Positions 3,764 to 63,211 are shown, counted from the first letter of the stretch. The stretch is 64,000 nt of DNA from an uncultured Desulfobacterales bacterium (GCA_964513995.1 CAZEOQ010000007.1:6891-70890), one strand, 5' to 3'. Numbers and translations: made by a program. Notes: a model not told the origin generated them from the sequence alone.

Positions 3764-4084
3764 ATGGAAAGATTTGGACCTTTTGATGAAGGCGTAATCC
3801 CTGTCCATTCAGTTGATATACCTGTAGTTGATCCTAATAATCCTGAAAATTTTAAGATACTCAGCTTTCCTGTCCAATCTCAGTCAGCAGATATAATAAC
3901 AATACTTGTTCCTGCTAAATACATAGGAACAATTCAGTCAATTTCAAAAAATAATAAAATTTCAGAAATAAGATTTTACTCTGATACCCTTCTCTTTATT
4001 GGAGAAGGGATAATCCTTTCTGCTTCAAGGATAAAAACAGGGCCTGAAAAAGGAAATTACCTTATAGAACTAAAGATCAAATAA
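3764..4084 (+). CDS. Hypothetical protein (about 106 aa, beta-rich)
   Basis: Only ORF filling the gap between nnr and the acyl-CoA ligase; TTGACA at 3728-3733 upstream; no family recognised. Confidence 0.55.
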   Translation: MERFGPFDEGVIPVHSVDIPVVDPNNPENFKILSFPVQSQSADIITILVPAKYIGTIQSISKNNKISEIRFYSDTLLFIGEGIILSASRIKTGPEKGNYLIELKIK

Positions 4085-6092
4085 TTATCTTTGCATCAAC
4101 GACCCAAATTCCATAAGGATTTAAAATAACAGGATTCAGATCCATCTCCTTTATTTCAGGAAATCTTATACAGAGAGAAGAAACTTTTATCATGAGTTCT
4201 ACGACTTTCTGGATCTCAGTCTCTTTTAAGTTATCTGATACCTTTGTCTTTCTGAAGACATAATATGCCTGATCCCTGTTAAAAGGAACAAGAATTTCTT
4301 CTATATCACCATATAACTCTACATCCTCTCCTCCTTTTCCAACCAGAAGTATATGACCAAACTTTTCATCTTTTTTTACTCCTATAAATATCTCCTCTCC
4401 TTCTTCTATCATTTTCTGAACAAGGACAGCCCTTACATCCTTTTTTATCATCTCCTTGTATGCTTCAAAAAGCTCTCTATAACTTTTTATCCAAACTTTT
4501 ATAAGTCCTTTTTTCTTTTTATGAATCCCTCCTTCTGCTTCTGCTTTTATGCAAACAGGAGGTCTTAGTCTCTCAAATGCATCTCTTAGTTCAGATTCAT
4601 CTTTTATTTTTACTGTTTCAGCAACAGGAATACCTGCAGCTTTTATAATCTCAAATGCATCCGAAAAGAGATAATCTTTCCCTTTTGAATTTTCTATTAT
4701 TTCCCTTATCTTTTCTTCCTTCTTTATTTCATAAATATCTGGTTCTTTTTTTGCCATCTCTCTTATGGCTTTATATTCCATACATAAACCAAGAGAACAA
4801 AAAGCCCTGTCAGGATGTTTAAAGACTGCTACAGGAGAATCCTTTGTAAAATTTTCTGCATCTTCTTCGTTATAATATCCTATAACCCAGGAAAGGACAG
4901 GTTTTTTTACAGATCTTTCCTTTACTACAGAACTTATTGTTTTCAGAGTAGGAATCCCATTTATACAAAATATTATATCCACTGAATCATCTTCAATCAT
5001 ACAGTTCAATGCTTCTGTATATACCTTTTTATATCCATGTCTGAAACTTGCTGACATAATGTCCACAGGATTTGAAGGACTGTAATATGGAGGATATATC
5101 TGAGAAATTCTTCGTAGGGTAGATTCAGAAAGTTCTGAAAGCTCAAAACCATACTTTTCAAGTGAATCAAGACAGATTATCCCTGCTCCTCCAGAAGGTG
5201 TTATGATTCCAACCCTCTTTTTGTCTGGTATGTGTATCTTTTTTGAAAGCATGTAGATCACATCTTCCAGCTTTTCTGTTGAGTCTGTTAGAATCAGACC
5301 TAAGCTAAAAAAGAAGGCTTTATATACTTTATAATCCTTTGCAATTGCTCCAGAATGAGAAACAACAGCTTTTTTTGCTTTTTCTTCCCTTCCTGATTTA
5401 AATATGACAATCGGTTTCTTATGTCCCTTTTCTTTTATTACCTTTTTAAACAATTCTGGTTCTTTTAGCTCTTCAATATGAACAGCTATAAGCTGTGTCT
5501 GATCATCTTCAAGAAGTTCTGAAAGAAGTTCAGGAAAGTCTATGTCACATCCATTCCCTATGTCTATTGCTTTTCCTATGGGAAGAGAAGAAAATCCTTG
5601 AACAAAAAGTCCTGATTGTCCAATAAATGAGACTGGCATAACTTTTGAGGATACAAAGACAAAGGAAGTCGTAAAATGAGAAAAATAATTTACGACTCCC
5701 ATAGAATTTGGTCCCAAGATCCTTATTCCATATTCCTTTGAAATATCCTCAAGCTCTTTCTGAAGTCTTTTTCCTTTTTCATCAGATTCTGCAAATCCAT
5801 CACTTATTATAACTGAAATCTTTATCCCTTTTTTTGCACACTGCTTCAGGATATCAGGAACAATTTCTCTTCTTACCATTATCACAGCAAGCTCAGGAAT
5901 ATCAGGAATTTCTTCTACTTTCCTGTAGCACTTGTATCCCAGTATCTCTTCTGCTGAGGGATTAACAGGATATATCTTCCCTTTATAACCAAAATCTATC
6001 AGAATCTTTAAAGGATTTAGTGTCTCAGTCCTTCTTGAAACACCAATAAGAGCTACAGAAGATGGAGAACAAAGAGATTTAAGCAAACTCAT
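4077..6092 (-). CDS. ADP-forming acyl-CoA synthetase (acetate-CoA ligase family), fused alpha/beta chain
   Basis: CoA-binding VALIGVS...YPVNP, GFAE, GPNSMG, catalytic SHSGA, SGGAGI, NPVD and C-terminal ATP-grasp EMDLNP; no GNAT domain. Confidence 0.88.
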   Translation of the reverse strand: MSLLKSLCSPSSVALIGVSRRTETLNPLKILIDFGYKGKIYPVNPSAEEILGYKCYRKVEEIPDIPELAVIMVRREIVPDILKQCAKKGIKISVIISDGFAESDEKGKRLQKELEDISKEYGIRILGPNSMGVVNYFSHFTTSFVFVSSKVMPVSFIGQSGLFVQGFSSLPIGKAIDIGNGCDIDFPELLSELLEDDQTQLIAVHIEELKEPELFKKVIKEKGHKKPIVIFKSGREEKAKKAVVSHSGAIAKDYKVYKAFFFSLGLILTDSTEKLEDVIYMLSKKIHIPDKKRVGIITPSGGAGIICLDSLEKYGFELSELSESTLRRISQIYPPYYSPSNPVDIMSASFRHGYKKVYTEALNCMIEDDSVDIIFCINGIPTLKTISSVVKERSVKKPVLSWVIGYYNEEDAENFTKDSPVAVFKHPDRAFCSLGLCMEYKAIREMAKKEPDIYEIKKEEKIREIIENSKGKDYLFSDAFEIIKAAGIPVAETVKIKDESELRDAFERLRPPVCIKAEAEGGIHKKKKGLIKVWIKSYRELFEAYKEMIKKDVRAVLVQKMIEEGEEIFIGVKKDEKFGHILLVGKGGEDVELYGDIEEILVPFNRDQAYYVFRKTKVSDNLKETEIQKVVELMIKVSSLCIRFPEIKEMDLNPVILNPYGIWVVDAKIII

Positions 6093-6093
6093 C

Positions 6094-6933
6094 TTATTCA
6101 GGTTCAAGACTTATAATCTTTGCTACTTTTTTTTCTAACTTCCCTACCTCTTCCACAATAATGTCCACATATTTCCTGTTAGGGTCTTCTTTTGGCATTT
6201 TTTTACTCAATCTTCTTGCAAATCCTCCTATAACCGTAAGAGAATTTCTGAGTTCATGAGCAACCCTGTTTGCCATCTTTCCCATTGCAGCGTGTCTTTC
6301 CATTTCTAAAAGTTTTCTATGTGTTTCTTCAAGCTGCCTAGTCCTTTCTTTTACTTTTTTTTCAAGCTCCTGCTGAGATATATATACCTCATCATAAAGC
6401 TGAGATATTTTTATAGCTATCCCTATCTCATTGGCAACTATATATATTGCATCGCTGTATCTTACATGAAAATAGTTTTTCCTTTTTGAAGCAGTTACCA
6501 AAATTCCTATTACTTTATCTTCTACCATTATAGGGGTAAAGGCAAAAGAGTTCATCGTATTTGGAACTATAAGGTGATCTTTATCCTGTATCTCGTCTAT
6601 GTCATTCACAATTACTATCCTTTTTTTTTCAAAACATCTGATTGCATATGGATCTTTAAGTTGTCGGTTTTCTATCTTTTCTATAAATCCTTTTTCTAAC
6701 CCAACACAGCTTTCTACTTTTACATGATTATTTGTGCTTATAAGGAGTATTGCACAAAGATCAAATTTATATTCTTTTATGAGGAGTCTGATGATCCCTT
6801 CTAAGACATTTTGAAGATGAAGGTGTGATGAAACAAGTTTTGTTATTTCAAATAATATTCTTAACTTCTTCCTGTTTTCTTTATACTTCCTTTCTAATTC
6901 ATCAATCTGGCTTAAGAGGCTTTTAAATACCAT
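6094..6933 (-). CDS. GAF + HisKA (DHp) protein lacking the HATPase domain
   Basis: GAF-like region (FTPIMVEDKVIGIL), coiled coil and H-box AHELRNSLTVIGGFARRL; protein ends about 40 aa later with no N/G1/G2 boxes. Confidence 0.8.
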   Translation of the reverse strand: MVFKSLLSQIDELERKYKENRKKLRILFEITKLVSSHLHLQNVLEGIIRLLIKEYKFDLCAILLISTNNHVKVESCVGLEKGFIEKIENRQLKDPYAIRCFEKKRIVIVNDIDEIQDKDHLIVPNTMNSFAFTPIMVEDKVIGILVTASKRKNYFHVRYSDAIYIVANEIGIAIKISQLYDEVYISQQELEKKVKERTRQLEETHRKLLEMERHAAMGKMANRVAHELRNSLTVIGGFARRLSKKMPKEDPNRKYVDIIVEEVGKLEKKVAKIISLEPE

Positions 6934-7257: not shown

Positions 7258-7653
7258 ATGTTTTTTAGAATTGCAGAAAGGAGAATAAAAGAGGCACAGG
7301 AAGAGGGAGTCTTTGATAATCTTCCAGGAAAGTATAAACCACTTAAACTTGAAGACTGGAGTAATGTGCCTCAAGATCTAAGACTTGCTTATAAGATCCT
7401 CAAAAATGCTGGATTTCTTCCTCCTGAGCTTGAGCTGAAAAAAGAGATCTTAAGGATGGAAGATCTTTTAGAACAGCTAACAGATGAAAAAGAGGCATAC
7501 AGACTGGTAAAAGAGATAAATCTGAAGATAATGAAGTTAAACATGATGAAAAAGAAGTCTCCTCTTCTTGAAGAAAATCAGATTTACTACAAGAAGGTCC
7601 TGGAAAAGATAAGAGAAAGAAGAGAAAAAAGGAAAAAAGCTAATCAGGACTAG
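7258..7653 (+). CDS. DUF1992 (DnaJ-family-associated) domain protein
   Basis: IAERRIKEAQEEGVFDNLPGKYKPL...AYKILKNAGFLPPELEL signature. Confidence 0.85.
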   Translation: MFFRIAERRIKEAQEEGVFDNLPGKYKPLKLEDWSNVPQDLRLAYKILKNAGFLPPELELKKEILRMEDLLEQLTDEKEAYRLVKEINLKIMKLNMMKKKSPLLEENQIYYKKVLEKIRERREKRKKANQD

Positions 7654-10600
7654 CTTCACTCCATTTTTCCTGATATGAAATAAGACTTTCTTCTGGATAT
7701 TCCATAAATTCCTCTTCTTTTATGTAATTTCTTGCCTCATATGCCTTCCTTAATACTTCCTGATAATCAAGGTTTCCTTCTTCAATCATATCCATTGCTT
7801 CTTCAAGCTGTCTTGTAAGTGATTCATCAATATATCTTGGAAAATTCTGCTTCAGATACTTATATACTTCTCTTCCAAGTCTTGTAGGATAAAGTCTTCC
7901 ATTTGGAAGCACCTTTATGTAATTTCTATTTATAAGTGTTGTAACGATTTCTGCATAAGTAGAAGGTCTTCCAAGTCCTCTTTTTTTCATCTCCTGAACA
8001 AGTGTCCCTTCTGTATAAAGATCTGCTTTTGGAACTAATCTAAATGAAACATTTTCAACTTTTATTTCTTCTGATATAGAAGCTACAGAAAAAGTAGGAA
8101 AGACCTTCTCAAATCCTTCTTCTAAAATTTCAAAAATTGCTTCATCTTCCCAGCTGTATGAAGGAGTTTCAAACCTTAGTCTTTTTACTTTCAGTTTTGT
8201 CTGTCTCATCTGACTTGCTATAAATCTTCTAAATATAAGATCATACAGTCTTACTGAAATATTAGGATCTGAAAGACTTATAAAACCTGCTCCTATCATA
8301 AACCTTACCTGAGATTCATCTTGAGGTCTTGTAGGACGGATTCCTTCATGTGCTCCTTCTTCTGCCCATTCTCTTGGATAAAATAGCTCTTCACCGAACT
8401 TATCAGCAATATATCTTTTTGCTACCTGATATCTTCCAACCTCTGATATTCTTGTTGAATCTGTCCTGTGATAAGTAATAAGTCCTGATTCAAATAATTC
8501 TTGTAGAAGCTTCATTGTTTGATTTGTAGAAAGACCAAGCCTTTGACTTGCATCCTGAAGTATAGTATCTGTGGTATATGGTGGAGGAGGAATTTTTATC
8601 TGTTCTTTTTCTTCAATAAAAGATACAGAAAGCTTTCCCTGTTTTATTTCTTGAAAAAGATTTTTTGCTAAAGCAGTATCTTCAAGTTCAACTGAAAACA
8701 GGTATTTCCATAGCCTAAAACTTATTTTAGCCTTTTTCTTTTTTGCCTCTTCTGCCCTTTCAATTACCCATCCAAGAACAGGAGTTTGAACTCTTCCTGC
8801 AGAAAGCCTCGTTTTTTTAAATTCCTTCCATAGCCTCTGTGAAAGAGTAAAACCGACCCATCTGTCAACTACTCTTCTTGCAAGCTGAGCTTTTACTCTG
8901 TTTAAGTTAAATCTTACAGGATTCTTTAAAGCTTCTCTAAATGCACGAGGAGTAACTTCGTGAAATTCAAGTCTGTTTATGTTTTTATTAAAAGGAGAAA
9001 GCTGTATAAAAAGATCATAAGCTATCTTTTCTCCTTCTGCATCTGGATCACTTCCAATGAATACTTCCTTTATTTCATAAGCAAGTCTTTGAAAGCTTTT
9101 TATAAGATCCTGTTTGTCAAAAATAGGTCCTTTTTCTTTTTTCTGTTCAACTTCTTCTGGATCTACAAGCTGCTGTCCAGTTGATTTCACTATCTTTATG
9201 GTATCAAATACTGGGATAAAATAAGAATCTTCCTTAAATACTCCAAAAAATCCCTTCTTTCTTGAAAGATTAAACACATGACCTAAGGATGCCGTTATCA
9301 TGAGAATCCTGTCCTCAGTTGGTATTTCATACACAAAAGCATCTCCTACTTTTCTTACAGTTGGCTTTCCAAAGAAGGAAGCAATGGTCCTTGCTTTATT
9401 AGGAGATTCTACTATTACCAGAGCAGTAGAAATCTGGTTTGAGACATCTATTTTTCTTTCCTTTCTGATCCTTGTAAGTTCTTCTGATATAGCCGAAAGA
9501 TCTATCTCTGAGATGTGTCTAAAAGAAAATTCTTCACCCAGATGCAATTTGAGTCTTTTTGTAAGGCTTTTTAAAGATCTTTTGTCTTCAGGAATTACTA
9601 TAGAAAGACCTTTAAGAAGACCTGAAGCTGTAAGTCTTGAAACCCTTCCAGATGCCTGAAGATATGTAGCAGAATCTCCTACTACAAGATAAATCTCTCC
9701 ATCCTGTCTTATAAGAAACACATCTTCTGAATTTTCAAGTCTTTCAATAAATTCCTTTTCCTTGAACTTCTTCTCTATGAATTCCTTTATCTTTTCGCAC
9801 TTCTGTTTTATTCTTGGATACCTTTCAAGGTCTTCTTCTTTTAAGTTCAAATACTTCTTCAGATACTGAATATCTTGAAATCTCCTTATCCTTTCCTCAT
9901 CTTCCAAGATAGAGATAACATTGACAAGTATATTGTAAAGACTTCTTGGAACTGCTGAAACCTTAGTAGGAAAAACATGTTTTGGCACTCCTAAAAATAT
10001 TGCATAACGAAGGACATAAGGAAGATCTATTCCCCTGACGAGAGGATTTCCTATGTGAGAAAGACCTACTGCTATGTCAAATTCACCTCTTTTCATTTCT
10101 TCCATAAGGGTTTCAGGATCAAGTTCCAGATAACTCAATACCTTAAATCCTTCCTTTCTCAAATTCTTTACAACTTCTTCTACCCCATTTTTTCCAAATA
10201 TAGATGAGACAAATAAAAGCCCACCCTTTCCAAGGATCTTTAAAAGAGAAGCTATTCTTTTACATGCTTTATCAATTTCAGGATATGTTTCGTCTGTTAT
10301 ATCTATTACATTTCTGAGATTTGAAACAGCTTGATAGATGTCAAAACCAAGTAAAAATCTAAAAAGCATTACTCTGTTTCCACGAGGTTTAAGTGTTGCA
10401 GATGAAAGAAGGAGGATCTTTTTTCCAGAATGTCTTTTTCTTATTTCCTCAAGTTTTTCAAAGTCTTCTTCTTTCTTATCATGTTTCAAAGCAAGGGCTA
10501 TTTCTTCTTCTGAAAAACCTAAAAGTTTAAAAAGTGAGTCAATGTGTGAAGATCTTTTAAGGAAGGAGTCAACATCGTCAATGAAGATAAAGCTGAAGTT

Positions 10601-11161
10601 GATTTCATTAAGTTTTTCTAAATTGCGATAAAAAAAGTTTACTGTTGCTACTAATATGTCAAAGTTTTTTTGATTAAAATCCTCTTTTTCCTTTTTTCTT
10701 CCAAGATAAGCCAAGATGTTTCTTGATATACCTGCCTTTTTGCAAAATTCCTTAAGCCTTTCTTCTGTCTGCTGGACAAGGAGTCTTGTAGGAACAAGGA
10801 TAAGAACCTTCTGGGAATCAAAACTCAGTGCAGAAATAAGACCAAATGTAGTTTTTCCTGTTCCTGTTGGTGCAACAATTGCAAATGATTCTCTAAAAAG
10901 CAGTCTTTTTATCCATGTCTCTTGAATTGGAAGAGGAGGATATCCTAAAGCTTTTTTAAAAAATTCAACAAATCTTTTAAACTCACTTTCAACTTTACAA
11001 AAATTCAAAAGATTTTTCAGTCTTCCACTTTCTTCAAGCTCTTTACAGACATCTTCCTTAGGTTCAGGAAGACAGCTCCTGCAAGGAAGTCCTTTTAACA
11101 AGCGATCATCACTTATTATACCACCACAGTTTGGACAGGCTCTTGCAACTAAGAAAATCAT
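7640..11161 (-). CDS. rgy: Reverse gyrase
   Basis: N-terminal CPNC...CRSC Zn finger, helicase motifs APTGTGKTTF, DDVD, SSAT, QASGRVSR; topo IA motifs IVESPNKA, DPDAEGE, SAGRVQ, catalytic ITYHRTDS, GLGRPSTY. ATG 11161 overlaps the smpB stop (ATGA). Confidence 0.97.
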   Translation of the reverse strand: MIFLVARACPNCGGIISDDRLLKGLPCRSCLPEPKEDVCKELEESGRLKNLLNFCKVESEFKRFVEFFKKALGYPPLPIQETWIKRLLFRESFAIVAPTGTGKTTFGLISALSFDSQKVLILVPTRLLVQQTEERLKEFCKKAGISRNILAYLGRKKEKEDFNQKNFDILVATVNFFYRNLEKLNEINFSFIFIDDVDSFLKRSSHIDSLFKLLGFSEEEIALALKHDKKEEDFEKLEEIRKRHSGKKILLLSSATLKPRGNRVMLFRFLLGFDIYQAVSNLRNVIDITDETYPEIDKACKRIASLLKILGKGGLLFVSSIFGKNGVEEVVKNLRKEGFKVLSYLELDPETLMEEMKRGEFDIAVGLSHIGNPLVRGIDLPYVLRYAIFLGVPKHVFPTKVSAVPRSLYNILVNVISILEDEERIRRFQDIQYLKKYLNLKEEDLERYPRIKQKCEKIKEFIEKKFKEKEFIERLENSEDVFLIRQDGEIYLVVGDSATYLQASGRVSRLTASGLLKGLSIVIPEDKRSLKSLTKRLKLHLGEEFSFRHISEIDLSAISEELTRIRKERKIDVSNQISTALVIVESPNKARTIASFFGKPTVRKVGDAFVYEIPTEDRILMITASLGHVFNLSRKKGFFGVFKEDSYFIPVFDTIKIVKSTGQQLVDPEEVEQKKEKGPIFDKQDLIKSFQRLAYEIKEVFIGSDPDAEGEKIAYDLFIQLSPFNKNINRLEFHEVTPRAFREALKNPVRFNLNRVKAQLARRVVDRWVGFTLSQRLWKEFKKTRLSAGRVQTPVLGWVIERAEEAKKKKAKISFRLWKYLFSVELEDTALAKNLFQEIKQGKLSVSFIEEKEQIKIPPPPYTTDTILQDASQRLGLSTNQTMKLLQELFESGLITYHRTDSTRISEVGRYQVAKRYIADKFGEELFYPREWAEEGAHEGIRPTRPQDESQVRFMIGAGFISLSDPNISVRLYDLIFRRFIASQMRQTKLKVKRLRFETPSYSWEDEAIFEILEEGFEKVFPTFSVASISEEIKVENVSFRLVPKADLYTEGTLVQEMKKRGLGRPSTYAEIVTTLINRNYIKVLPNGRLYPTRLGREVYKYLKQNFPRYIDESLTRQLEEAMDMIEEGNLDYQEVLRKAYEARNYIKEEEFMEYPEESLISYQEKWSEASPD

Positions 11162-11625
11162 ATTTTCCACCTTTTCCTTATACTTTCAAGTTCTCTTTTC
11201 AACTCTTTCTCCTTCAATTCCTTTCTTTTATCATACTTCTTTTTTCCTTTAGCTAAAGCAAGTTGAACTTTTGCCCATCCTCTTGGAGAAAAATATATCT
11301 TTATAGGAATAAGTGTATAACCTTTTTCTTCTGTCTTTCCTATAAGCCTGTTTATCTCTTTTTTATGTAAAAGAAGTTTTCTTGGTCTGTTTGGATCAAT
11401 AGATGTATGTCCAGCATATGGATATGGTTTTATATACATGTTATATAAGAAGACTTCTCCTTTTTTTATCTTTGCATAACTGTCCTTTATACTTACCCAT
11501 CCCTCTCTGAGAGATTTTACTTCTGGTCCTAAAAGGACTATCCCTGCTTCGTATACCTCATCTATAAAGTAATCATGTGCAGCCCTTCTGTTATAACAGA
11601 CTACCTTTATCTTTTCTTCATCCAT
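11158..11625 (-). CDS. smpB: SsrA-binding protein SmpB
   Basis: NRRAAHDY...EAGIVLLGPEVKSLR...RKLLLHKKEI...GKKKYDKR. Confidence 0.97.
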   Translation of the reverse strand: MDEEKIKVVCYNRRAAHDYFIDEVYEAGIVLLGPEVKSLREGWVSIKDSYAKIKKGEVFLYNMYIKPYPYAGHTSIDPNRPRKLLLHKKEINRLIGKTEEKGYTLIPIKIYFSPRGWAKVQLALAKGKKKYDKRKELKEKELKRELESIRKRWKI

Positions 11626-53203: not shown

Positions 53204-53850
53204 GCTGCTGTCTTATACTGATATTACTTTTTAATTCCCTTTGTTTTGCAAAGATTTCTGCAATTCCTGAAGAAGCAGATATAGGAACTCTTATAGAAGG
53301 AAAAACAAAAGAAGTTGTATTTTTTTTAAAGAACTATGGAAAAAAGCCTGTTACTGTTGAAAACGTAATACCTGATTGTGATTGCACTTCTGTTATTTCA
53401 TATACAGCGAGGATAAGCCCAAAAGAAGAAGGAAAGGTAATAGTAAAAATAGATACAGCTGGTCTCAGTGGAAAGATCAGAAAAAAGATCCTTGTAATAA
53501 CAGATGATCCAGAAAGCTCAGAGATTCCTCTTTTTATAACAGGAAAAGTCATATCTCCAATAGATGTAACTCCTAAAAGGGTTTATCTTGTTGGAAAAAA
53601 GGATTCTCTTATAAAGGCAGAAGTAGAGATAAAAGGGAATTTTAGAAAGCTAAAAATAGAGCCAGCTTCTTCACTTGATATAAGGTCAATAAGGTTTTAT
53701 GTAAAAAAGGTAAATGAAAAGGAATACAGGATAAAGTTTTTAAAATTCCCTTCAGATGATGAATCGTATACAGGAACTTTAAAACTTAAAACAAACTATC
53801 CTGAAAAACCTTATATAATCATTCCCATAATCGGCATATTTTTTGACTAA
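53200..53850 (+). CDS. Exported DUF1573-like (Ig-fold) protein
   Basis: Signal-peptide-like N-terminus, F.LKNYG..PV, PDCDCT, TDDP motifs. Confidence 0.75.
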   Translation: MSCCLILILLFNSLCFAKISAIPEEADIGTLIEGKTKEVVFFLKNYGKKPVTVENVIPDCDCTSVISYTARISPKEEGKVIVKIDTAGLSGKIRKKILVITDDPESSEIPLFITGKVISPIDVTPKRVYLVGKKDSLIKAEVEIKGNFRKLKIEPASSLDIRSIRFYVKKVNEKEYRIKFLKFPSDDESYTGTLKLKTNYPEKPYIIIPIIGIFFD

Positions 53851-54674
53851 GCCTTCTTCCCTCTTACTATAACCCTTTCTTCTTCTGGAATAGGTGGTGG
53901 AACAGGTTCTCCAATGATCTTTCTTACTGCTTTGAACTTAGGTGGACATACCTCATAACATGTTCCACACTTTATACACTTTTCCTGATCAATCACATGT
54001 ATCTTATTCTTTTCACCAGTTATTGCACCTGCTGGACAGCGTCTTCTACATGTTCCACATGCCTGACATTTTTCAGGATCAATATAGTATGAAGGAACTT
54101 CTGTAAGGAGCTTTTCTATCTCTTCCTTTGTATAAAAATCCTTGTATTCCTCAATGCTTCCAAGGCGTTTCATAAGCTTTTCTCTTTTTGTTACCTTTAT
54201 GTAAGGAACAAGCTTTATTATTTCCTCAAGTCTTTTACTTATCTCTTCTTTGCTTATTCCTTCACTTCCAAGAGGACCTATCTGTCTTAGCTTTTCTGTA
54301 AAATCTCTTACTACTTCAGCAAAACGACCACCTTCAGCAGATGACATAAATTCTATCCTGAGTCTATCAGGATTTATTCCTACATATTCAAGAATCCTTT
54401 TACATAGATGAACCATATTCAGTGCAAAATAGTTTCCTTCTGTCACATAATTGCATTCTCCGAGTCTGCATCCTCCAACAAGAACACCATCTATTCCTTT
54501 GGAAAATGCCCTGAATATAAATGTCATATCAACTCTTCCACTGCACATAATACGGATTATCCTTATTTCTGGTGGATACTCCAACCTGGAGACCCCAGCA
54601 AGATCTGCTGCACCATATGCTCACCAGTAACAAAGGAATCCAATTATCCTTGGCTTAAAAGTAGTCTTTGCCAT
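53847..54674 (-). CDS. bamF: BamF: selenocysteine MvhD-like [2Fe-2S] subunit of class II benzoyl-CoA reductase with C-terminal 2x[4Fe-4S] domain (275 aa, Sec18)
   Basis: ATG 54674 after AAGGAGG reads MAKTTFKPRIIGFLCYW-UGA-AYGAADLAGVSRLEYPPE, in frame with ORF 53847-54584 (CSGRVD, GCRLGECNY); UGA at 54623-54621 is at the second Cys position of the MvhD CxxC. Confidence 0.9.
54596..54610 (-). promoter_or_regulatory. Candidate bacterial SECIS hairpin of bamF
   Basis: CAGCA-GATCT-TGCTG starting 10 nt after the in-frame UGA. Confidence 0.6.
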
Positions 54675-54685
54675 CCCTTTCCTCC

Positions 54686-57600
54686 TTAAGTTTCTGAAAG
54701 AAGTGCATCAATCTGACAAAGGATCTGTTCGTTCTTAAAGTGGTTCAGAGAAATTGCACCAGTTGGACATACTGAATTGCAAAGTCCATCTCCTTTACAT
54801 AGAACAGGATTTACTTTTGCCTTATTTTTCTTTATCTCTATAGCTCCATACTTGCAAAAAGAAGCACATATTCCACATCCCATACATCTCTTTTCATCTA
54901 CCTGTGCAACAGCACCAGGTGCTATTGCAACATCATGTGAAAGAAGCATGCTGCATCTTCCTGCTGCACCATATGCCTGGCTTATGGTTTCATTTATGTG
55001 CTTAGGATAGTGAGCAGTTCCACAAAGAAAGATTCCGTCTGTTGCAAAGTCAACTGGTCTAAGCTTTACATGTGCTTCCTTAAAGAATCCATCTACATCA
55101 AGAGGAACTTTATATAGCTGAGCAAGCCTTTTTGCATCTTCTCTTGGAACAACAGCAGCTGCAAGGCTGAGTATATCAGCATCTATTGCTATCCTTTGTC
55201 CAAGGATAGGATCAGTTACTGTTACCCTAAGCCTTCCTTCTACTTTTTCCACCTCAGGAACATTTTCTGGTGGCTCATATCTTATAAACCTTACTCCCAT
55301 GTCTGATGCCTTCCTATAGTAATCTTCTCTGAATCCATATGTCCTCATGTCTCTGAAAAGTATATATATCTCAGCTTGTGGATTTATCTCCTTTAGCTTA
55401 ATTGCATTCTTTATTGCATGTGAACAGCATACCCTGCTACAGTAATTTCTTTCTTCATTCCTTGATCCAACACACTGTATCATTACAACTGATCTTGCAT
55501 TCTGAATCCTTTCATCCTTTTTTGCTATAAGTTCTTCAAGTTCAAGATGCGTAAATACCCTTTCATCTTCTCCATAAAGGTATTCCTTTGGCTTGTATTC
55601 TTCTGCTCCTGTTGCAATTATCGTTGCTCCATGACGTATGATCCTTACAACATTTCCTGTCTCTACAGTAGTTATGAAGTTTCCAATGTATCCTGAAGCA
55701 TCCTTGATTTTTGCTTCAGTAAAGACATGGATGAGTGGATGTGCATATACCTTTTCTATAAGACCTTTCAGATAGCTTTGAACATCCTGACCATCTATCG
55801 TAAAATAAAGTCTTTTTGCAATTCCTCCAAGCTCTTTTTCTTTTTCTACAAGATATACCTCAAATCCCTGATTTGCCAGACTTAATGCAGATGTCATTCC
55901 AGCAACTCCACCACCTATGACAAGTATCCTTTTATCAAGAGGAATCTCTATCTCTTTCAGAGGCTCAAGACGGGCTGCTCTTGCAACAGCCATCCTTATA
56001 AGATCCTTTACCTTCCTTGTTGCCTCTTCCCTTTCCTTAGAATGAGCCCATGTGCAGTGTTCTCTTATGTTTACCATCTCAAGATAATACTGATTCAGAC
56101 CAGCTTCCTTCATCGTCTCACGAAATGTTGGTTCAAGATTTCTTGGAGTGCATGCAGCAATAACAACCCTGTTCAGTTTATGTTCGTGAATTGCATCAAT
56201 TATCTCTTTTATGTAGTTTGATGCACATGAAAATACCTGATTTGTTGCATATACGACATTTGGAAGTGTCTTTGCATATTCTGCCATCTCAACAGTATTT
56301 ATAACTCCTGCAATGTTGCTTCCACAATGACATACAAATACACCAATCCTTGGCTCTTCCTTTGATACATCCATTTCTTCTGGATATACCTTCTCTTTTG
56401 CAAGTAGTCCGCGACGATGAGAAAGAAGCTCTCCACATTTTGAACTCACACCACTTGCAGAAAATACAGACTCAGGAATGTCTACAGGACCCTGAAATGC
56501 ACCACTTACAAATATTCCCGGACGAGATGTCTGAAGTGGATCAAATGGACTTACTTTGCAGAATCCGTGTTCATTCAGCTCTATTCCAAACTTTTCTGCA
56601 AGCTCTTTTGCCTCAGAAGGTGGTCTAAGTCCTACAGAAAGAACGACAAGATCAAACTTCTCTTCTTTTACTCCTTCATCAGGCGTAGAATACCTTATGA
56701 TAACATTTCTTTCACTGTCTTCTCCAGCAACTGTCACATAGCTTCTTATGAACTTTACCTTATCAAGCTGTGCAGCCCTTTGATAATACCTTTCAAAGTC
56801 CTTTCCATATGCCCTTATGTCATTGTGAAAGATCCAGATCTCTGTATCTGGATCATGTTCTTTTGTAATAAGGACTTGCTTCTGTGTATATGTGCAACAT
56901 ACTGATGAGCAATAACTGCTGTATCCTTCAATTACCCTTCTTGATCCAACACACTGAATCCATGCAATCTTTTTTGGATGTTTCATATCTGATGGTCTTC
57001 TTATCTCACCACCATATGGTCCTGTTGCACTTGTTATTCTTTCAAAGTCAAGGCTTGTTACAACATTTGGATATATTCCATATCCAAAGTCGTTTCTTAT
57101 GGAAGGATCAAATATCTCAAATCCTGGACTGAGGACTATTGCTCCTACCTTCAGATTTATCTCTTCTGGCTTCTGACTGAAGTCTATTGCCTGATTTGGA
57201 CATACTGCAAGACATATTCCACATTTGTTTTCTTTAAGATAAAGGCAGTCCTTTTCTGTTACATAGCTTATAAGTGGAACTGCCAAGGAGAAGTAAATGT
57301 GGATTGCTTTACTGAATGAGAGATTCTGGTTGTATGGATCAGGAACAAGAACAGGGCAGTTTTCCTGACATGTCGTGCATCCTGTGCACTTTCCTTCAAG
57401 GACATATCTTGGTCTTTTTATAAGCCTTACCCTGAAATCTCCTACCTCTCCTTCTACTTTCTCAACCTCTGCATCTGTTATGATCTCTATATTTGGGTGC
57501 CGGCCGGCCTCGACCAGCTTTGGAGCAAGTATTCAGACAGAACATTCGTTTGTAGGAAAGGTCTTATCAAGCTGACCCATATGTCCGCCAATTGTAGGGA

Positions 57601-57745
57601 GCTTTTCTACAAGGTATACCTTGAATCCAGATGAAGCAAGATCAAGTGCTGCCTGTATTCCACTTACTCCTCCGCCAACAACCATCACATCAGCAAAATT
57701 TATTCCTTCTCTAAGTCTTAATAGCCTCTCTATTAAGGCTTCCAT
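54686..57745 (-). CDS. bamE: BamE: HdrA-like FAD/FeS subunit with an in-frame selenocysteine (1019 aa, Sec71)
   Basis: ORF 57533-57745 (VVGGGVSG...[12 protein letters not shown]) continues through UGA 57535-57533 as [16 protein letters not shown]...[11 protein letters not shown] with no further stop into ORF 54686-57286; two HdrA FAD modules ([31 protein letters not shown]). Confidence 0.9.
57503..57518 (-). promoter_or_regulatory. Candidate bacterial SECIS hairpin of bamE
   Basis: GCTGGT-CGAG-GCCGGC starting 14 nt after UGA; a conspicuous GC-rich patch (codons GCC GGC CGG) in otherwise AT-rich DNA. Confidence 0.6.
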
Positions 57746-57757
57746 TTTCTCATCTCC

Positions 57758-58924
57758 TTAGATAATTTCTTTTATTATCTCAGTTACATCCTTTATTTCT
57801 ATAAATCCCTCACCATATTTTTCTTCAAGTGTCTTTCTGCTGTCCTCAAGCATTGTAATACAGTATGGACAGAATGTTGCTATGACCTCTGCTCCAACCT
57901 GAACAGCCTGCTCTATCCTTATGTCAGAAAACCTTTCTCCTTTCCTCGTCTCCATCCATACCCTTCCTCCTCCACCTCCACAGCAAAGACTGTTTTCTCT
58001 TGATTCTGGAAGTTCAACAAACTCAATTCCTGGAATCATCTTGAGAATCTCTCTTGGTTCATCAAATATTCCGTTATGTCTTCCAAGATAGCATGGATCG
58101 TGATATGTAACCTTCTTTTTGTATTCCTTCTGTATCTTTATTCTTCCTTCTTTTAAAAGCCTTAAAAGCAGTTGTGACATGTGTATTACTTCAAAATTTA
58201 CGCTGAATTCTGGATATTCATTCTTAAATGTATGATAACAGTGAGGAGAGCTTACAATGATCTTTTTTACGCCACTGTCAATAAATGTCTTTATGTTTTC
58301 TTTTGCAAGCTTTCTGAAAAGCTCCTCATCTCCAGTCTTCCTTATACTTTCTCCACAGCAGTTTTCCTTTTCTCCAAGTATCCCAAAACTTACTCCTGCT
58401 TTATTTAGGATCTCAACTGTTGCCCTTGCTATTTTCTTTCCTCTTGGATCATAACACGGATAGCAGCACGGAAAATAAAGATATTCTGTCTGTTCTGTAA
58501 ATTCATTTACAGGAAGACCTTCAGCCCATTTTTTCCTTTCACTCCTTTTTTCACCAAGAGGATTTCCTTCAGCAACAAGACTTCCACTTGCTGTTTTTAC
58601 TGGCTGAACAGGCTCAGGAAATATTCCATATTCTGTAGCAACACTTCTAAGAAGCTTTACGACCTCTATCTGATTTACCTGTCTCGGACACTGAATCGTG
58701 CATCTTCCACAAGTTGTGCACCTCCATATATCTTCACTTTCAACCTCTGTAAGTCCAAATGTTGCCTGTCTTATTATCTTCCTCATACTGAACTGGATCA
58801 CCTTGTTCCATGGACATACAGAATCACAAAGACCACACTGAAAACATAGTCTAAAAGGTTCACCACCTTTTTCCCTAATAAGATCTACTATTTCCTTATA
58901 TTCTTCAAGTATTATAGCTTCCAC
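57758..58924 (-). CDS. bamD: BamD: HdrC/HdrD-like Fe-S protein with CCG domains
   Basis: CFQCGLCDSVCP, CTTCGRCTIQCP, ENCCG, YHDPCYLGRHN, CCGGGGG, CPYC; lies between bamC and bamE. Confidence 0.87.
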   Translation of the reverse strand: MEAIILEEYKEIVDLIREKGGEPFRLCFQCGLCDSVCPWNKVIQFSMRKIIRQATFGLTEVESEDIWRCTTCGRCTIQCPRQVNQIEVVKLLRSVATEYGIFPEPVQPVKTASGSLVAEGNPLGEKRSERKKWAEGLPVNEFTEQTEYLYFPCCYPCYDPRGKKIARATVEILNKAGVSFGILGEKENCCGESIRKTGDEELFRKLAKENIKTFIDSGVKKIIVSSPHCYHTFKNEYPEFSVNFEVIHMSQLLLRLLKEGRIKIQKEYKKKVTYHDPCYLGRHNGIFDEPREILKMIPGIEFVELPESRENSLCCGGGGGRVWMETRKGERFSDIRIEQAVQVGAEVIATFCPYCITMLEDSRKTLEEKYGEGFIEIKDVTEIIKEII

Positions 58925-58936
58925 CTTTCCCTCTCC

Positions 58937-59512
58937 TTATTTTCTAATTTCTTGTGCTTTCTTTGCTGTTGCCATCTGTATCACCATATCCACGACTTTG
59001 TCAAAACCAAATCTGTCTGCAAGTGCATTAAGTCCTACCTCAAGTTCATTCTCCTTTGGAGGCTCTTCTTCTACTTCCTCTTCCCTTTCTTCATATGTAA
59101 GTGCATCTACAAGACAGACCTGAACACACCAGGGTTCTTCAAGAGGGGGCTCATTCTCACATACATCACACTTTAAAGGAAGTCCTGAATCTGGATCCTT
59201 AAAAAGGTCTCTTGCAGGACATGCTGCACCACAGAAGCTACATACCACATAATCCTTTCCATATACACTCTGCATCTCTCCGTTTGCTATGTATATGCTC
59301 CTTCCTTCACATTCTGCCTTTGTATAAAATGTTGCACGAACAGGAACAAATACATTTCTCTGATCATCCCTAAATACCCTTATACGAGACTTTGAAGGAT
59401 TTACACTGCTGTATTTTGGATTTGCATGGAATGCAGAGCATGCAACCTCACATGCTCTACACCCCATGCATTTGTCAAGATCCATCTTTATTATCTTTAT
59501 CTTCCTTTTCAT
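58937..59512 (-). CDS. bamC: BamC: [4Fe-4S] ferredoxin-like subunit
   Basis: CMGCRACEVACSAFHANPKYSSVNP.KSRI...CSFCGAACP.RDLFKDPDSGLPLKCDVC...CVQVC; ATGA overlap with bamB. Confidence 0.9.
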   Translation of the reverse strand: MKRKIKIIKMDLDKCMGCRACEVACSAFHANPKYSSVNPSKSRIRVFRDDQRNVFVPVRATFYTKAECEGRSIYIANGEMQSVYGKDYVVCSFCGAACPARDLFKDPDSGLPLKCDVCENEPPLEEPWCVQVCLVDALTYEEREEEVEEEPPKENELEVGLNALADRFGFDKVVDMVIQMATAKKAQEIRK

Positions 59513-61497
59513 GACTTCTCTCCTTGTGCTTGATCTTCTTTCAGAATACCTCTTTTTACAAAGTCCTCATATACATATCCCAGATTTAGCTTCTCAAGTG
59601 TCTCTTTTGTAGGAATTCCATCCTTGTTCCATCCTCTGTATTTGTAATACTCATCCATAAGCTTTTCTTCATATTCAGGAAATCTCTTCTTCCAGTGATC
59701 TTCTGGTGGTTTGTCATCCTTCCTTCTCAGACCTCTTCTTACATTTATACACCTTACGAGATTCCTTACCCTTGTTGCTATTGTCCAAAGCTTGTCTTCA
59801 TCCATCTTAAGTCCTGATGCAGCTTCTATTATAAGTGGAAGATTGTGGATGTGATATGGTGGTTTGAGTGGGAATGAGGAAAGTCCTGCACAGATTCCAG
59901 TGCAGTCGTCAATATAGTGCATGATCTCCTGCCATTCTACAAGCTCACATACAAGGTCTGGTGGAGGATAATATGGGAATGTATAGCCTTCATCTCCCCA
60001 TTTCAGTATAAATTCCTTAAATCTTTCTTCCTTTCCAGTAGGAATCTGTATCCAGTCCTTTACAAATTCCTCTCTTATCTTTTTTGGAAGAGGTGCCTGT
60101 GGGATCTGTCCTTCAATCTGTGTTATGTTTATCTTTTCTCCTGTTGCCCACATAAGGAAGTAGATTGGATTTAGCATTCCAAGTTTTATTGGAACCTGCT
60201 CATGCTTCTTTATAGTATTGTGATCAAACTTTTCTGCTCCTCTTCCAATCTCTCTTGCTGCCCAGTATACTCCTTTTGCGAGAACATCTCCTATCCCTTC
60301 TCTTTTTACAACCTTTTCAAGAAGATAAATGAATCTTTCTTTGTTGTCTTTTGGAAAGTTTGGAAGATCTTTGTCAGTAAGGATTCCATTTTCATAAAGC
60401 TCTATTGCAAATGCAAGGACCTGTGGTGTCGTAAATCCATCAAGTCCGTAGTGCTGTGCAAGACCTGCACACTTAAGTCCAAACTCAAGATCATCAACCA
60501 TTGCAGCCATTGTATATGTAAGCTTTGTAAAGCATTTCATTACATATACAGGAACACCTGGAAGCTCAAGTATTGCAGAACATGCAACAGGACAGTTATA
60601 ACAGGCTATAAGGCGTTTTCTTGCATTCTCAAGTGTTCTCGTCCACTTTTCTTCTATCTCCTTTGTCCAGAATCCTTTCCTCCTTATCCTTGCATTTCCC
60701 CATGCAAAGCTTTCTGTATGCCATTTTTCATCGTGAAGTCTCATCTCCTGAGGTGATCCAATGTATGCAAGGATTCCTGGAATTCCTGGAAGAGGATTCT
60801 TGAGACGGTAGTCTATAAATTTCAGGACCTCTTTGTTAAGTTCCATAAGCCTTTCACCATCAGCAACATTCACATCCCTTGTTCCACGAACAGCTATTGC
60901 CTTAAGGTTCTTGTCTCCCATAATAGCGCCAAGACCAAGTCTGCTTGCACTGCTTTTTGAGCTTTCAATAGACGCAAAATAGACCCTGTTTTCTCCAGCA
61001 AGACCTATTGCAAGAACCTGTGCATCTGGCTGATTCAGCTCCTGCTGTATAGCTCTTATTGTCTCATATGTGCTTTTTCCTTTAAGGTGTGTTGCATCAC
61101 GTATCTCTACCTTGTCATCATGTATCCAGAGATAGACGAGCTTTGGTGCTTTTCCACGAATAATTATCTTATCATATCCAGCATGCTTTAGCTCTGGCGC
61201 CCAGAATCCTCCCATCATAGAGAATCCCATAAGGAGTGTCTGTGGGGAGATGGAAGAGATAATAGTTCTGTTTGCTCCTATGACTGGTGTTCCGCAAAGA
61301 AGACCTGCACTAAATATAAGAACATTATCTTCAGAAAATGGCTCTACTTCAGGAGGAACTCTGTCCCAAAGTATCTTTGCATTTGTTCCAAGTCCGCCAA
61401 GATAAAGTTCTGTATCCTGTGGATCTGTAGGGACTTTTTCAATGTTTCCTGTAGAAAGATCTATCTCTAAATTATATCCTGTCTCTGCGTATCTCAT
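59509..61497 (-). CDS. bamB: BamB: tungstopterin catalytic subunit of class II benzoyl-CoA reductase (AOR family)
   Basis: MRYAETGYNLEIDL...TELYLGGLGTNAKILWDRVPPEVEPFS; BamB-type motifs GSPQEMRLHDEKWHTE, CYNCPVAC, MKCFTKL (W-ligating Cys), TQIEGQ, GLSSFPLKPPYHIHN match my recollection of Geobacter BamB. Start ATG 61497 after GAGGTGG. Confidence 0.92.
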   Translation of the reverse strand: MRYAETGYNLEIDLSTGNIEKVPTDPQDTELYLGGLGTNAKILWDRVPPEVEPFSEDNVLIFSAGLLCGTPVIGANRTIISSISPQTLLMGFSMMGGFWAPELKHAGYDKIIIRGKAPKLVYLWIHDDKVEIRDATHLKGKSTYETIRAIQQELNQPDAQVLAIGLAGENRVYFASIESSKSSASRLGLGAIMGDKNLKAIAVRGTRDVNVADGERLMELNKEVLKFIDYRLKNPLPGIPGILAYIGSPQEMRLHDEKWHTESFAWGNARIRRKGFWTKEIEEKWTRTLENARKRLIACYNCPVACSAILELPGVPVYVMKCFTKLTYTMAAMVDDLEFGLKCAGLAQHYGLDGFTTPQVLAFAIELYENGILTDKDLPNFPKDNKERFIYLLEKVVKREGIGDVLAKGVYWAAREIGRGAEKFDHNTIKKHEQVPIKLGMLNPIYFLMWATGEKINITQIEGQIPQAPLPKKIREEFVKDWIQIPTGKEERFKEFILKWGDEGYTFPYYPPPDLVCELVEWQEIMHYIDDCTGICAGLSSFPLKPPYHIHNLPLIIEAASGLKMDEDKLWTIATRVRNLVRCINVRRGLRRKDDKPPEDHWKKRFPEYEEKLMDEYYKYRGWNKDGIPTKETLEKLNLGYVYEDFVKRGILKEDQAQGEKS

Positions 61498-61523: not shown

Positions 61524-61557
61524 ATGTTATATAAATCAAACATCTTTTTTCTGTCAA
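61524..61557 (-). promoter_or_regulatory. Candidate sigma70 promoter of bamB
   Basis: TTGACA (61557-61552), 18 nt, TATATA (61533-61528); short inverted repeat ATGTT-N10-AACAT (61524-61543) overlaps the -10. Confidence 0.5.
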
Positions 61558-61994
61558 GAAAGTCTTTTTTCAAGGTTTATAAAATCACTCCTGTCAAAGC
61601 CAACTGTTTTGAAAAATGAAAGAATATCAACTGAATCCCATCTTACTGATGTATAAAGAAACTTTATCCCTTTTTCTTTACATATCTCAAAAAGCACACT
61701 TGCAAGACTTCTTCCTATTCCCTGCCCCATATATCTCGGATCTACTCCAAAATTTGCAATCCATGCACCCCTGTCAACTCCAAATCCACCATATATGATG
61801 TAGCTTATCATATATCCGACTATCTTCCCGTTCAGCTCAGCAACGAGAGCAATAATATCAGAAGAGTCCTTTATTACATTGCTGAAGTCTGTTTTTATCC
61901 TGTGCTTAGTTATAGCCTGTTCAATCCTTTCAATCTCTTTTATGTCTTCCTTTTTGGCTTCTCTTATAGAAATCTTCTTCTTTAACTCTTCCAT
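61554..61994 (-). CDS. GNAT family acyl-CoA-binding protein
   Basis: IREAKKED, LVAELNGKIVGY, motif A FGVDPRYMGQGIGRSL, FFKTVGF. Confidence 0.9.
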   Translation of the reverse strand: MEELKKKISIREAKKEDIKEIERIEQAITKHRIKTDFSNVIKDSSDIIALVAELNGKIVGYMISYIIYGGFGVDRGAWIANFGVDPRYMGQGIGRSLASVLFEICKEKGIKFLYTSVRWDSVDILSFFKTVGFDRSDFINLEKRLS

Positions 61995-62236: not shown

Positions 62237-62345
62237 GAAAAAAGTAAACTGAGATTGTTCGAAAGATAAAAAGACAAAACTTGAACTGGAGGGAGGTTTT
62301 AGAATTATATCAGAAGCATTTTTTCGAATAGCCTTCCAAACCTAC

Positions 62346-62374
62346 TTGACAATCTTAAAAAAATCCTTTATCAT
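62346..62374 (+). promoter_or_regulatory. Near-consensus sigma70 promoter upstream of the hairpin RNA and NYN gene
   Basis: TTGACA (62346-62351), 17 nt, TATCAT (62369-62374). Confidence 0.75.
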
Positions 62375-62380
62375 TAAAAT

Positions 62381-62460
62381 AGGAAATTTTAAGTACTACT
62401 ACACTTCCTCCTGGGGCATTCTCCTTATCCACAACCCTTCCCCCAGGAGTCATTTTTTAT
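62381..62460 (+). ncRNA. Candidate leader/small RNA: 9-bp GC stem, 24-nt G-free loop, U-tract
   Basis: CTCCTGGGG (62408-62416) pairs with CCCCAGGAG (62441-62449); loop CATTCTCCTTATCCACAACCCTTC; followed by TCATTTTTTATT immediately before the NYN ATG. Confidence 0.5.
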
Positions 62461-62464
62461 TAAG

Positions 62465-63106
62465 ATGATCTACAAAGTAGCTCTTCTCATAGATTGGGAT
62501 AACATTAGATACAGAATTTTTAAAAACAGAAACCTTTTGAGAAAAGACACTCCAAGGTTTTCGTATTTTAAACATACAACCAAATTACCAGCCTTTTTTC
62601 TTAATTTTTTGGAGGAAGAAGAAAGACCTTACCGAATCTTTTTTTATCTTTCAGAAGGATACAGGGGTAAAGTAAAAGATCCAGAAGGGAAAGAGAGAGA
62701 TTTTTCTGAAACAGAAGAAGCTAGAGCAATGGGAAAGTTTATAAATACTCTTTCCATACTGGATCTGGTTGCAATAAGAAAGGGAAGGACAGCGTTTAGA
62801 GGATGGAAGCATGAAAATGGAAAATATGTTCCTATATTTGTCCAGAAAAAGGTGGATATTCTTTTAGCACTAGATATAGCTCATCTAACTTACAATAAGC
62901 TTGTGGATCGTATTCTGATCTTTAGTTATGATACAGACCTGCAACCTGCTCTTAAAACAGCACGAATTGGTGGAATTCAAGTCATTCTTCCTTTTTTTAA
63001 AGAAATGAAATGGGAAGATATTCCTTTGGAATTAAAAGCTCATTGTGATTTTATCAGAATAAAAAGTTATCACGAGATATGTTGTAAATTACTAAAGAAT
63101 GAGTAA
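62465..63106 (+). CDS. NYN (LabA/DUF88-like PIN-fold) ribonuclease
   Basis: Acidic catalytic motifs LLIDWDN, QKKVDILLALD and SYDTDL intact; L.AHCDF tail. Confidence 0.88.
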   Translation: MIYKVALLIDWDNIRYRIFKNRNLLRKDTPRFSYFKHTTKLPAFFLNFLEEEERPYRIFFYLSEGYRGKVKDPEGKERDFSETEEARAMGKFINTLSILDLVAIRKGRTAFRGWKHENGKYVPIFVQKKVDILLALDIAHLTYNKLVDRILIFSYDTDLQPALKTARIGGIQVILPFFKEMKWEDIPLELKAHCDFIRIKSYHEICCKLLKNE

Positions 63107-63211
63107 GTTTCTATTTCTTTTCTAAAGAACATGCAGATGGCCTGAGCAGTGAAAAGGAATTTCTGGCAATTTTAAAGCCATGAAACTTATGGCTCACTAT
63201 TCTGCTGGCCC

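Follow-up and report, generated by a model that had tools for sequence, protein, structure and literature searches.

Gene content of the bam cluster

We analysed a stretch of 64,000 nucleotides from an uncultured Desulfobacterales bacterium (GCA_964513995.1 CAZEOQ010000007.1:6891-70890), referred to as the window. The genome that carries it is designated G000, and all coordinates are positions in the window unless a contig of this genome is named. The window contains the genes bamB, bamC, bamD, bamE and bamF of a class II benzoyl-CoA reductase (BCR) and, on the same contig, a gene for reverse gyrase. An initial annotation made from the sequence had placed bamBCDEF at 53847..61497, and all five genes were found there, co-directional and on the minus strand. 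The end coordinate, 61497, marks the start codon of bamB, since this gene begins at MRYAETGY. The cluster comprises the following features (aa, amino acids; Sec, selenocysteine):

59509-61497, minus strand: bamB, tungsten-pterin catalytic subunit of 662 aa with AFOR_N and AFOR_C domains, starting MRYAETGY
58937-59512, minus strand: bamC, Fe-S subunit of 191 aa with Fer4 domains
57758-58924, minus strand: bamD, HdrD-like subunit of 388 aa with two CCG domains and Fer4_8
54686-57745, minus strand: bamE, fused double HdrA of 1019 aa with TGA read as Sec
53847-54674, minus strand: bamF, 275 aa with TGA read as Sec; MvhD/FlpD domain, helical linker and C-terminal 2x[4Fe-4S] ferredoxin domain (two Fer4)
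53850-54101, minus strand: C-terminal ferredoxin domain of BamF, approximately residues 192-275; homologue of the BamH C-terminal domain

The order bamB-C-D-E-F is identical in related loci. BamC is 53-65% identical to the product of the gene that follows bamB in relatives, BamD is 61-72% identical to that of the co-linear gene of related loci, and the HdrA2 model of NCBIfam gives 995 bits for BamE, below its cut-off. NCBIfam contains no Bam models; as the initial annotation had anticipated for automated pipelines, it returns names of the AOR, Hdr and VhuD type, none of them above cut-off. The listing of open reading frames (ORFs) breaks both bamE and bamF at their in-frame TGA codons.

The identity of the catalytic subunit was examined against all sequences in the Protein Data Bank (PDB). 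BamB aligns with BamB of Geobacter metallireducens (4Z3W_A) over residues 1-653 versus 1-651 with 1018 bits, while the next PDB match, the aldehyde ferredoxin oxidoreductase (AOR) of P. furiosus (1aor), reaches 227 bits; judged by these scores, the similarity to the solved BamB is far beyond chance. According to a 2025 review (PMC12096430), Cys322 is the protein ligand of the tungsten and is retained by every predicted BamB protein, and Glu251, His255, Glu257 and His260 are invariant residues of the zinc site and proton relay. All five are conserved in the window protein, with numbering counted from the alignment to 4Z3W_A. The motifs EMxxHDEKWH and KCFTK that had been noted in BamB are present as QEMRLHDEKWH and MKCFTK, and these align with QEMKVHDEKWH and MKCFTK of the Geobacter protein. 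In a tree of the AOR family, BamB falls in a group with 81 further BamB sequences and separate from the AOR paralogues of its own genome, and thus not outside the BCR clade. With its placement and its defining residues, the cluster bears out the first identification and is a real class II BCR core.

Both bamE and bamF contain a single in-frame TGA and no other stops. In bamE the codon lies at 57533-57535 and corresponds to Sec at residue 71 (motif FPTNECSVU); in bamF it lies at 54621-54623 and corresponds to Sec at residue 18 (motif FLCYWU). We compared both positions in 89 related loci, comprising 80 public loci and 9 from relatives. Of 70 loci covering the BamE position, 58 have TGA and the remaining 12 TGC or TGT; at the BamF position, 53 of 59 loci have TGA and six a Cys codon. 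Two Sec codons are the norm for bam loci and not a novelty. Sec in BamE had been considered as a novel feature, and this was rejected because TGA is the majority state. The genome encodes machinery for Sec insertion: of the sel genes that had been proposed as a check, selA (635 bits) and selB (390 bits) are present, both above cut-off, and so is tRNA-Sec. Predicted RNA folds of the 70 nucleotides after each UGA gave hairpins no more stable than those of shuffled sequence (z -0.31 and -0.21).

One further gene on the same strand lies directly upstream of bamB:

61554-61994, minus strand: GNAT acetyltransferase with an Acetyltransf_1 domain

It is a possible member of the operon, and bamK of G. 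metallireducens is listed as an N-acetyltransferase in a table of PMC1924859. Beyond it, contigs of three independent metagenome runs join position 62248 to 63211 and omit the 962 bases in between (62249-63210). This skipped segment holds a gene for an NYN-domain protein (62465-63106) and is thus variable between strains.

A long BamF and no bamGHI

The characterised enzyme is the Bam[(BC)2DEFGHI]2 complex of G. metallireducens (BamBC crystal structures 4Z3W-4Z40; 2026 cryo-EM preprint 10.64898/2026.04.10.717634), and the complex has also been isolated from Desulfosarcina cetonica. In the preprint, the reaction is explained by the coupling of two bifurcating modules, BamGHI and BamDEF. BamGHI is described as resembling HydBC and as drawing electrons from NADH and from reduced ferredoxin; external ferredoxin is received by the ferredoxin-like domain at the C-terminus of BamH (clusters H1 and H2), and BamF serves as an adaptor that touches BamI with its extension. 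The window cluster shares with the Geobacter enzyme the gene order from bamB to bamF, the double-HdrA BamE, the HdrD-like BamD and the Sec of BamF, residue 18 here being Sec19 of the preprint. In contrast to the Geobacter enzyme, it lacks BamG, BamH and BamI, and its host is a predicted thermophile. BamF differs as well: the Geobacter protein ends, according to the preprint, in a winged-helix region that contacts BamI, whereas the window protein ends in the 2x[4Fe-4S] domain. In BamE, Sec stands where G. metallireducens apparently has Cys62 in the preprint, a correspondence mapped from the motif and not from an alignment.

No bamGHI genes lie next to bamF; no NuoF-like gene follows, and convergent genes (for a DUF1573 protein and a nitroreductase) lie there instead. 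Because bamGHI is absent, the window enzyme is, on its gene content, a short form and not the characterised Bam[(BC)2DEFGHI]2. Genome-wide there are two NuoF-like genes, one complex-I-like and the other a stand-alone HydB-like gene on contig C33:

C33:2778-4652, minus strand: HydB/BamH-like flavoprotein (locus L117) of 624 aa with a thioredoxin-like 2Fe-2S domain, an FMN/NADH domain and a C-terminal ferredoxin domain

This protein is 54-57% identical to BamH of canonical loci. Its gene is convergent to NfnAB-like genes and has no adjoining NuoE-like or HydA-like partner. With BamG, BamH and BamI of a canonical relative as queries, the matches in the genome were scattered over three contigs and reached 40%, 54% and 34% identity, respectively; the BamG-like match lies at the end of contig C11 and the BamI-like one on C39.

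We then typed BamF in those 80 public loci whose BamB is most like that of the window (the best 80 of at least 593). A full-length bamB match was present in 75 loci and was incomplete in five. In 25 of the 75 the flank was too short and no BamF match was obtained, which left 50 loci with BamF. In 24 of these, BamF aligns to the end of the query including the ferredoxin domain and no BamH lies downstream (short type); in 23, BamF aligns only to residues 2-193 and BamH follows (canonical type); three loci fit neither class. Many short-form operons, including that of the window, end at bamF with convergent genes directly after it. Over its last ~80 residues, BamF of the window shares 62-75% identity with the BamH C-terminus of canonical loci, versus 47% over only 49 residues for the HydB-like protein of the same genome, and this part also aligns with solved HydB in its C-terminal ferredoxin domain (8a6t_B, 545-624 of 630). 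When the two types were mapped on trees, two changes between them were needed in the tree of the BamF N-domain, seven in that of BamE and eleven in that of BamB. This indicates two old BamF lineages and a catalytic core that has been shared and exchanged between the two forms.

The N-terminal part of BamF and the HdrA-like BamE also resemble the MvhD/HdrA modules of methanogens (e.g. 5ODC). The BamF N-domain matches MvhD (5odc_D) with 147 bits, and the methanogen and window proteins alike have a Sec/Cys site in a CxWC-type motif. Unlike in methanogens, where this module is coupled to heterodisulfide reductase and hydrogenase, the window module is coupled to a tungsten reductase of the AOR family, and no Hdr or Vhu model of NCBIfam reaches its cut-off here. 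Our literature search, which did not reach subscription papers, found no description of a class II BCR without BamGHI, and the short form itself appears to be undescribed.

Host lineage, signs of thermophily and downstream genes

The second prominent gene of the window lies 42 kb from the bam genes:

7640-11170, minus strand: reverse gyrase (rgy) of 1176 aa, TIGR01054

It scores 1285 bits on TIGR01054 (cut-off 471.7), covers profile positions 6-1168 of 1172 and has the fused helicase-topoisomerase IA architecture, so that the reported occurrence of rgy and bam in one window holds. Further signs of thermophily came from composition. The proteome has an IVYWREL fraction (F) of 0.444. The formula T = 937F - 335, attributed to Zeldovich et al. 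2007 and applied here to crude ORF calls of a low-GC genome, converts this to ~81 °C; for 58 other BamB loci it yields 39 °C on average (sd 13). BamB itself has an IVYWREL fraction of 0.427 versus a mean of 0.398 (sd 0.014) among 82 BamB sequences, about 2 sd above it, and the 44 tRNAs together with tmRNA average 62% GC versus ~36% for the largest contigs of the genome. Six further sequencing runs from four studies, with the possible source run excluded, each contain at least 78% of the sampled words of the stretch; three are labelled as hydrothermal-vent metagenomes and three carry no label. Reverse gyrase, IVYWREL fraction, tRNA GC content and vent metagenome matches agree with the earlier suggestion of strong thermophily, and on these signatures the host looks strongly thermophilic. 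Some BamB-bearing relatives, L124, L126 and L127 (family f2) and L125 and L130 (family f5), also look thermophilic by composition, with 68-72 °C by this formula from samples of only 6-14 thousand residues, and no rgy was found in them.

The initial annotation had raised the possibility of a chimeric contig, and we found no sign of chimerism. The rgy gene is flanked by smpB, a ptsI-like gene, rsmI, rnhB, trmD, rimM and ffh, and the core genes between rgy and bam include smpB, rnhB, trmD, ffh, ruvABC, dnaJ and the mraY-to-ftsZ (dcw) cluster. Tetranucleotide profiles are ordinary along the whole contig, every 8-kb window lying at the 10th-75th percentile of the genome, and each operon boundary is bridged by contigs from three other runs. 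Compared with the stretch, independent metagenome contigs show scattered single-base changes, with indels reported only outside the bam genes. The GC content of the bam region is 38-40% versus 34-35% nearby, and the flanks share with the bam and rgy contigs of relatives only the bam genes and rgy, with no other synteny. The genome itself consists of 61 contigs with a total of 1.74 Mb, an estimated completeness of 97.6% and an estimated contamination of 1.05%.

BamB-like genes (E <= 1e-50) are present in 37 of the 41 genomes of the order, G000 included, and BamB occurs in all four relatives of the same family with 70-75% identity. Three of them (G001, G003 and G004) have the complete short-form cluster, and in the fourth, G002, the contig ends inside bamB. 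The bam genes are ~70% identical among the genomes of the family, in line with ~66% for the housekeeping genes adjoining the Had cluster described below, which fits vertical descent; horizontal transfer of bam into the thermophile was rejected on the same comparison. Reverse gyrase was found in only two of the four family relatives and, elsewhere in the order, in 0 of 36 genomes. Among 401 sampled genomes of the phylum, again including G000, 23 have reverse gyrase, 106 have a close BamB and six have both: G000 and G001 (family f1) and G094, G130, G281 and G404 (family f52). All four f52 genomes carry bamBCDEF. The ferredoxin-fused BamF was found in three of them; in G130 the contig ends before this domain. 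No BamH-like match was obtained in the f52 flanks that were fetched, of which only that of G281 (6.2 kb) is of informative length. Our literature search found no paper that pairs reverse gyrase with benzoyl-CoA reductase. As a separate observation, the reverse gyrase of the window is only 39-46% identical to the copies on G001:C34 and G003:C185, with neighbouring housekeeping genes at ~66%, and the rgy genes of family f1 may be of different origin or fast-evolving.

Genes for the steps after ring reduction were found outside the window on contig C4, where four genes stand in a row and encode a short-chain dehydrogenase (SDR), Had/BamQ, a Dch/BamR-like hydratase and a MenB-like crotonase. Had/BamQ (C4:11964-13079) scores 477 bits on TIGR03201 (cut-off 338.65). 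The Dch/BamR gene is 81-82% identical to its counterpart in the SDR-Had-BamA-Dch operon of relatives, with syntenic flanks. BamA, which relatives have between Had and Dch, is cleanly gone at this place, and a gap of 14 nucleotides remains. The crotonase gene follows Dch:

C4:10136-11167, minus strand: MenB/BadI/Oah-like crotonase (locus L023) of 343 aa

It scores ~172 bits on each of the MenB, Oah and BadI models, below every curated cut-off, and is ~36% identical to BamA of a relative over the N-terminal half only. The protein belongs to a large, uncharacterised family of ~320 aa proteins in bacteria and archaea. Orthologues occur in ten other genomes of the phylum sample; the gene stands directly after Had in five of these ten loci, and in two of the five Dch follows the crotonase gene, so that it occupies the exact slot of BamA. 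From this gene context, the crotonase probably replaces BamA as the ring-opening hydrolase. Orthologues with 94-95% identity are present in another family of small genomes with reverse gyrase. Adjoining the crotonase gene, C4:8705-9733 (plus strand) encodes a 342-aa protein without an NCBIfam match, which is kept beside it in three genomes of genus g80 (59-64% identity). The genome also contains dsrA (574 bits) with dsrB adjoining, as looked for on the suggestion of the initial annotation, and an EtfBA pair. In the window, 4077-6107 (minus strand) encodes a 676-aa protein resembling ADP-forming acyl-CoA synthetases, which scores 385 bits on the acetate-CoA ligase model, below cut-off, and thus adds an unassigned acid-CoA ligase to the gene content.

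Proposed function, alternatives and significance

Taken together, the window probably encodes a functional short-form class II (tungsten/selenium, ATP-independent) benzoyl-CoA reductase, and the host would be a thermophilic, sulfate-reducing, uncultured member of the Thermodesulfobacteriota (Desulfobacterota; the phylum name follows the titles of related loci). A catabolic role of the enzyme is plausible.

We propose the following path of electrons. Reduced ferredoxin would dock on the C-terminal 2x[4Fe-4S] domain of BamF, the homologue of the ferredoxin-accepting domain of BamH, and electrons would then pass via the [2Fe-2S]/Sec site of BamF to the bifurcating FAD of BamE. A low-potential electron would travel via BamC to the tungsten cofactor in BamB, where benzoyl-CoA would be reduced to cyclohexa-1,5-diene-1-carbonyl-CoA, and a high-potential electron would leave through BamD, probably to an electron-transferring flavoprotein (ETF). 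The dienoyl-CoA would be handled by BamR and BamQ, encoded on C4, and probably by the MenB-like crotonase in place of BamA. Taken further, BamBCDEF could be a self-sufficient ring reductase that runs on ferredoxin alone, its docking domain having moved from BamH to BamF. The coupling of two bifurcating modules would then be no general requirement of class II BCRs. In this lineage the reductase would be active at ~70-80 °C, and the ring would afterwards be opened by a MenB-like, non-orthologous hydrolase. This extended proposal is tentative, and we place it at somewhat less than even chances.

Several observations weigh against our interpretation. A short-form enzyme has yet to be characterised: BamGHI is part of both complexes that have been purified, and the preprint gives it the role of electron input. 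BamB is 66-75% identical to every BamB compared, and known BamB paralogues with unclear roles, described in PMC5109826, are ~64-66% identical. The downstream genes that had been proposed as a check on the pathway were recovered in part. BamQ is present above its cut-off; BamR is orthologous by synteny, and its gene has TIGR03189 as top match with 198 bits versus a cut-off of 292.5. Canonical BamA is not in the assembly, where the best score is 139 bits (172 for the whole protein) versus a cut-off of 464.45 and tblastn with BamA of a relative gave nothing above 36% identity; of the 41 genomes of the order, 24 have it above cut-off, among them three of the four family relatives, and its replacement by the crotonase is argued from gene context. 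The benzoate-CoA ligase that had likewise been suggested as a check is not encoded at cut-off in the genome (best 227 versus 375 bits), and neither a UbiD-type nor a glycyl-radical activation enzyme was found there, so that no benzoyl-CoA-forming enzyme was identified. Of the earlier description as a thermophilic anaerobic aromatic degrader, the thermophile is supported; the aromatic degrader is something we still infer, because of these missing activation enzymes. In addition, the growth temperature of ~81 °C comes from a composition formula, none of the listed runs that contain the stretch is an RNA run, and the assembly contains no 16S rRNA gene.

The observation that the genome does encode relatives of BamG, BamH and BamI leads to an alternative in which the five-gene core does not work alone and receives its electrons in trans from an NADH/ferredoxin module of the BamGHI kind encoded elsewhere, with the canonical mechanism and scattered genes. 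The stand-alone 624-aa protein on C33, with its identity to canonical BamH, speaks for this, as do the weaker BamG-like and BamI-like matches. But the three genes lie on three contigs and, where examined, adjoin neither each other nor bam. Moreover, the region by which canonical BamF contacts BamI, as given in the preprint, is replaced here by the ferredoxin domain; a long BamF goes without BamH in all 24 short-form loci, which is how the class was defined, with only three of 50 loci fitting neither class; and the tree of the BamF N-domain divides almost cleanly by type. We consider an in-trans supply unlikely. A comparably low probability is assigned to a real but non-catabolic enzyme, which would act on another aryl- or cyclohexadienyl-CoA substrate or in the reverse direction, as proposed for the formation of benzoate and cyclohexanecarboxylate in syntrophs. 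Such a role would fit a genome of 1.74 Mb that lacks canonical BamA and any recognised benzoyl-CoA-forming enzyme above cut-off, and in the literature class II BCRs are called reversible (PMC5736913) and BamB paralogues with unclear substrates are known (PMC5109826). It is countered by the retention of every residue named as invariant for BamB, by the BamQ and BamR orthologues, which are conserved and syntenic across the family, and by the report of Bam together with downstream genes in metagenome-assembled genomes (MAGs) of hydrothermal-vent Deltaproteobacteria (Toth et al. 2026, PMC13101534).

The clean loss of BamA from a position where relatives have it, in a small genome, could also be the mark of a decaying pathway, with the bam genes as relics left after the loss of BamA and BamGHI. 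Decay is very improbable, since all of bamB to bamF are intact, have kept both Sec codons and contain no other stops, the short form is likewise intact in G001, G003, G004 and a second thermophilic family, and the differences seen in independent metagenome contigs are scattered single-base changes, with indels reported only outside the bam genes. Least credible of all is an artefact of assembly or binning that joined rgy and bam from different organisms. The 61 contigs, the estimated contamination of 1.05%, the higher GC content of the bam region and the flanks without synteny to the bam or rgy contigs of relatives are what such an artefact might look like. Against it stand the location of both on one contig with ruvABC, ffh and the dcw cluster with ftsZ between them, the ordinary tetranucleotide profiles, the contigs of three other runs that bridge each operon end, and the recurrence of rgy together with BamB in G001, G003, G094, G130, G281 and G404.

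A functional short-form reductase in a thermophilic host, the reading that we prefer, has to be seen next to earlier work. Zehnle et al. 2023 (PMC10570749) report a thermophilic Desulfatiglandales MAG (MAG 9) that has a class II BCR and stems from a sulfate-reducing culture enriched on benzene at 70 °C, and Toth et al. 2026 report the vent MAGs mentioned above. The idea of a class II BCR in a thermophile is therefore no longer new, and a claim of novelty for such an organism is weakened. The Desulfatiglandales MAG reportedly has BamA and a methylation-type activation of benzene, whereas BamA and glycyl-radical enzymes were not found here; reverse gyrase, which is encoded in the window genome, is nowhere mentioned in that study, and its main text does not name the Bam subunits that the MAG lacks.

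To our knowledge, no enzyme from a thermophile with a class II BCR has been studied. The reaction of class II BCRs is among the most reducing known in biology. Since the short form makes up about half of the typed loci (24 versus 23 of 50) and its core is interchangeable with that of the canonical form, it questions the need for confurcation of NADH and ferredoxin. The version from a thermophile, with five subunits versus eight and a composition of the thermostable type, would be a natural candidate for a robust structural and biochemical preparation. If BamA has been swapped for another enzyme, surveys that use bamA as a marker would miss such organisms. The locus also adds to published evidence that sulfate reducers degrade aromatics in hot, oil-rich vent sediments. 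If the enzyme does run on ferredoxin alone and at ~70-80 °C, it would belong to a route that ranks among the hottest and most minimal ones by which bacteria are known to dearomatise compounds anaerobically.

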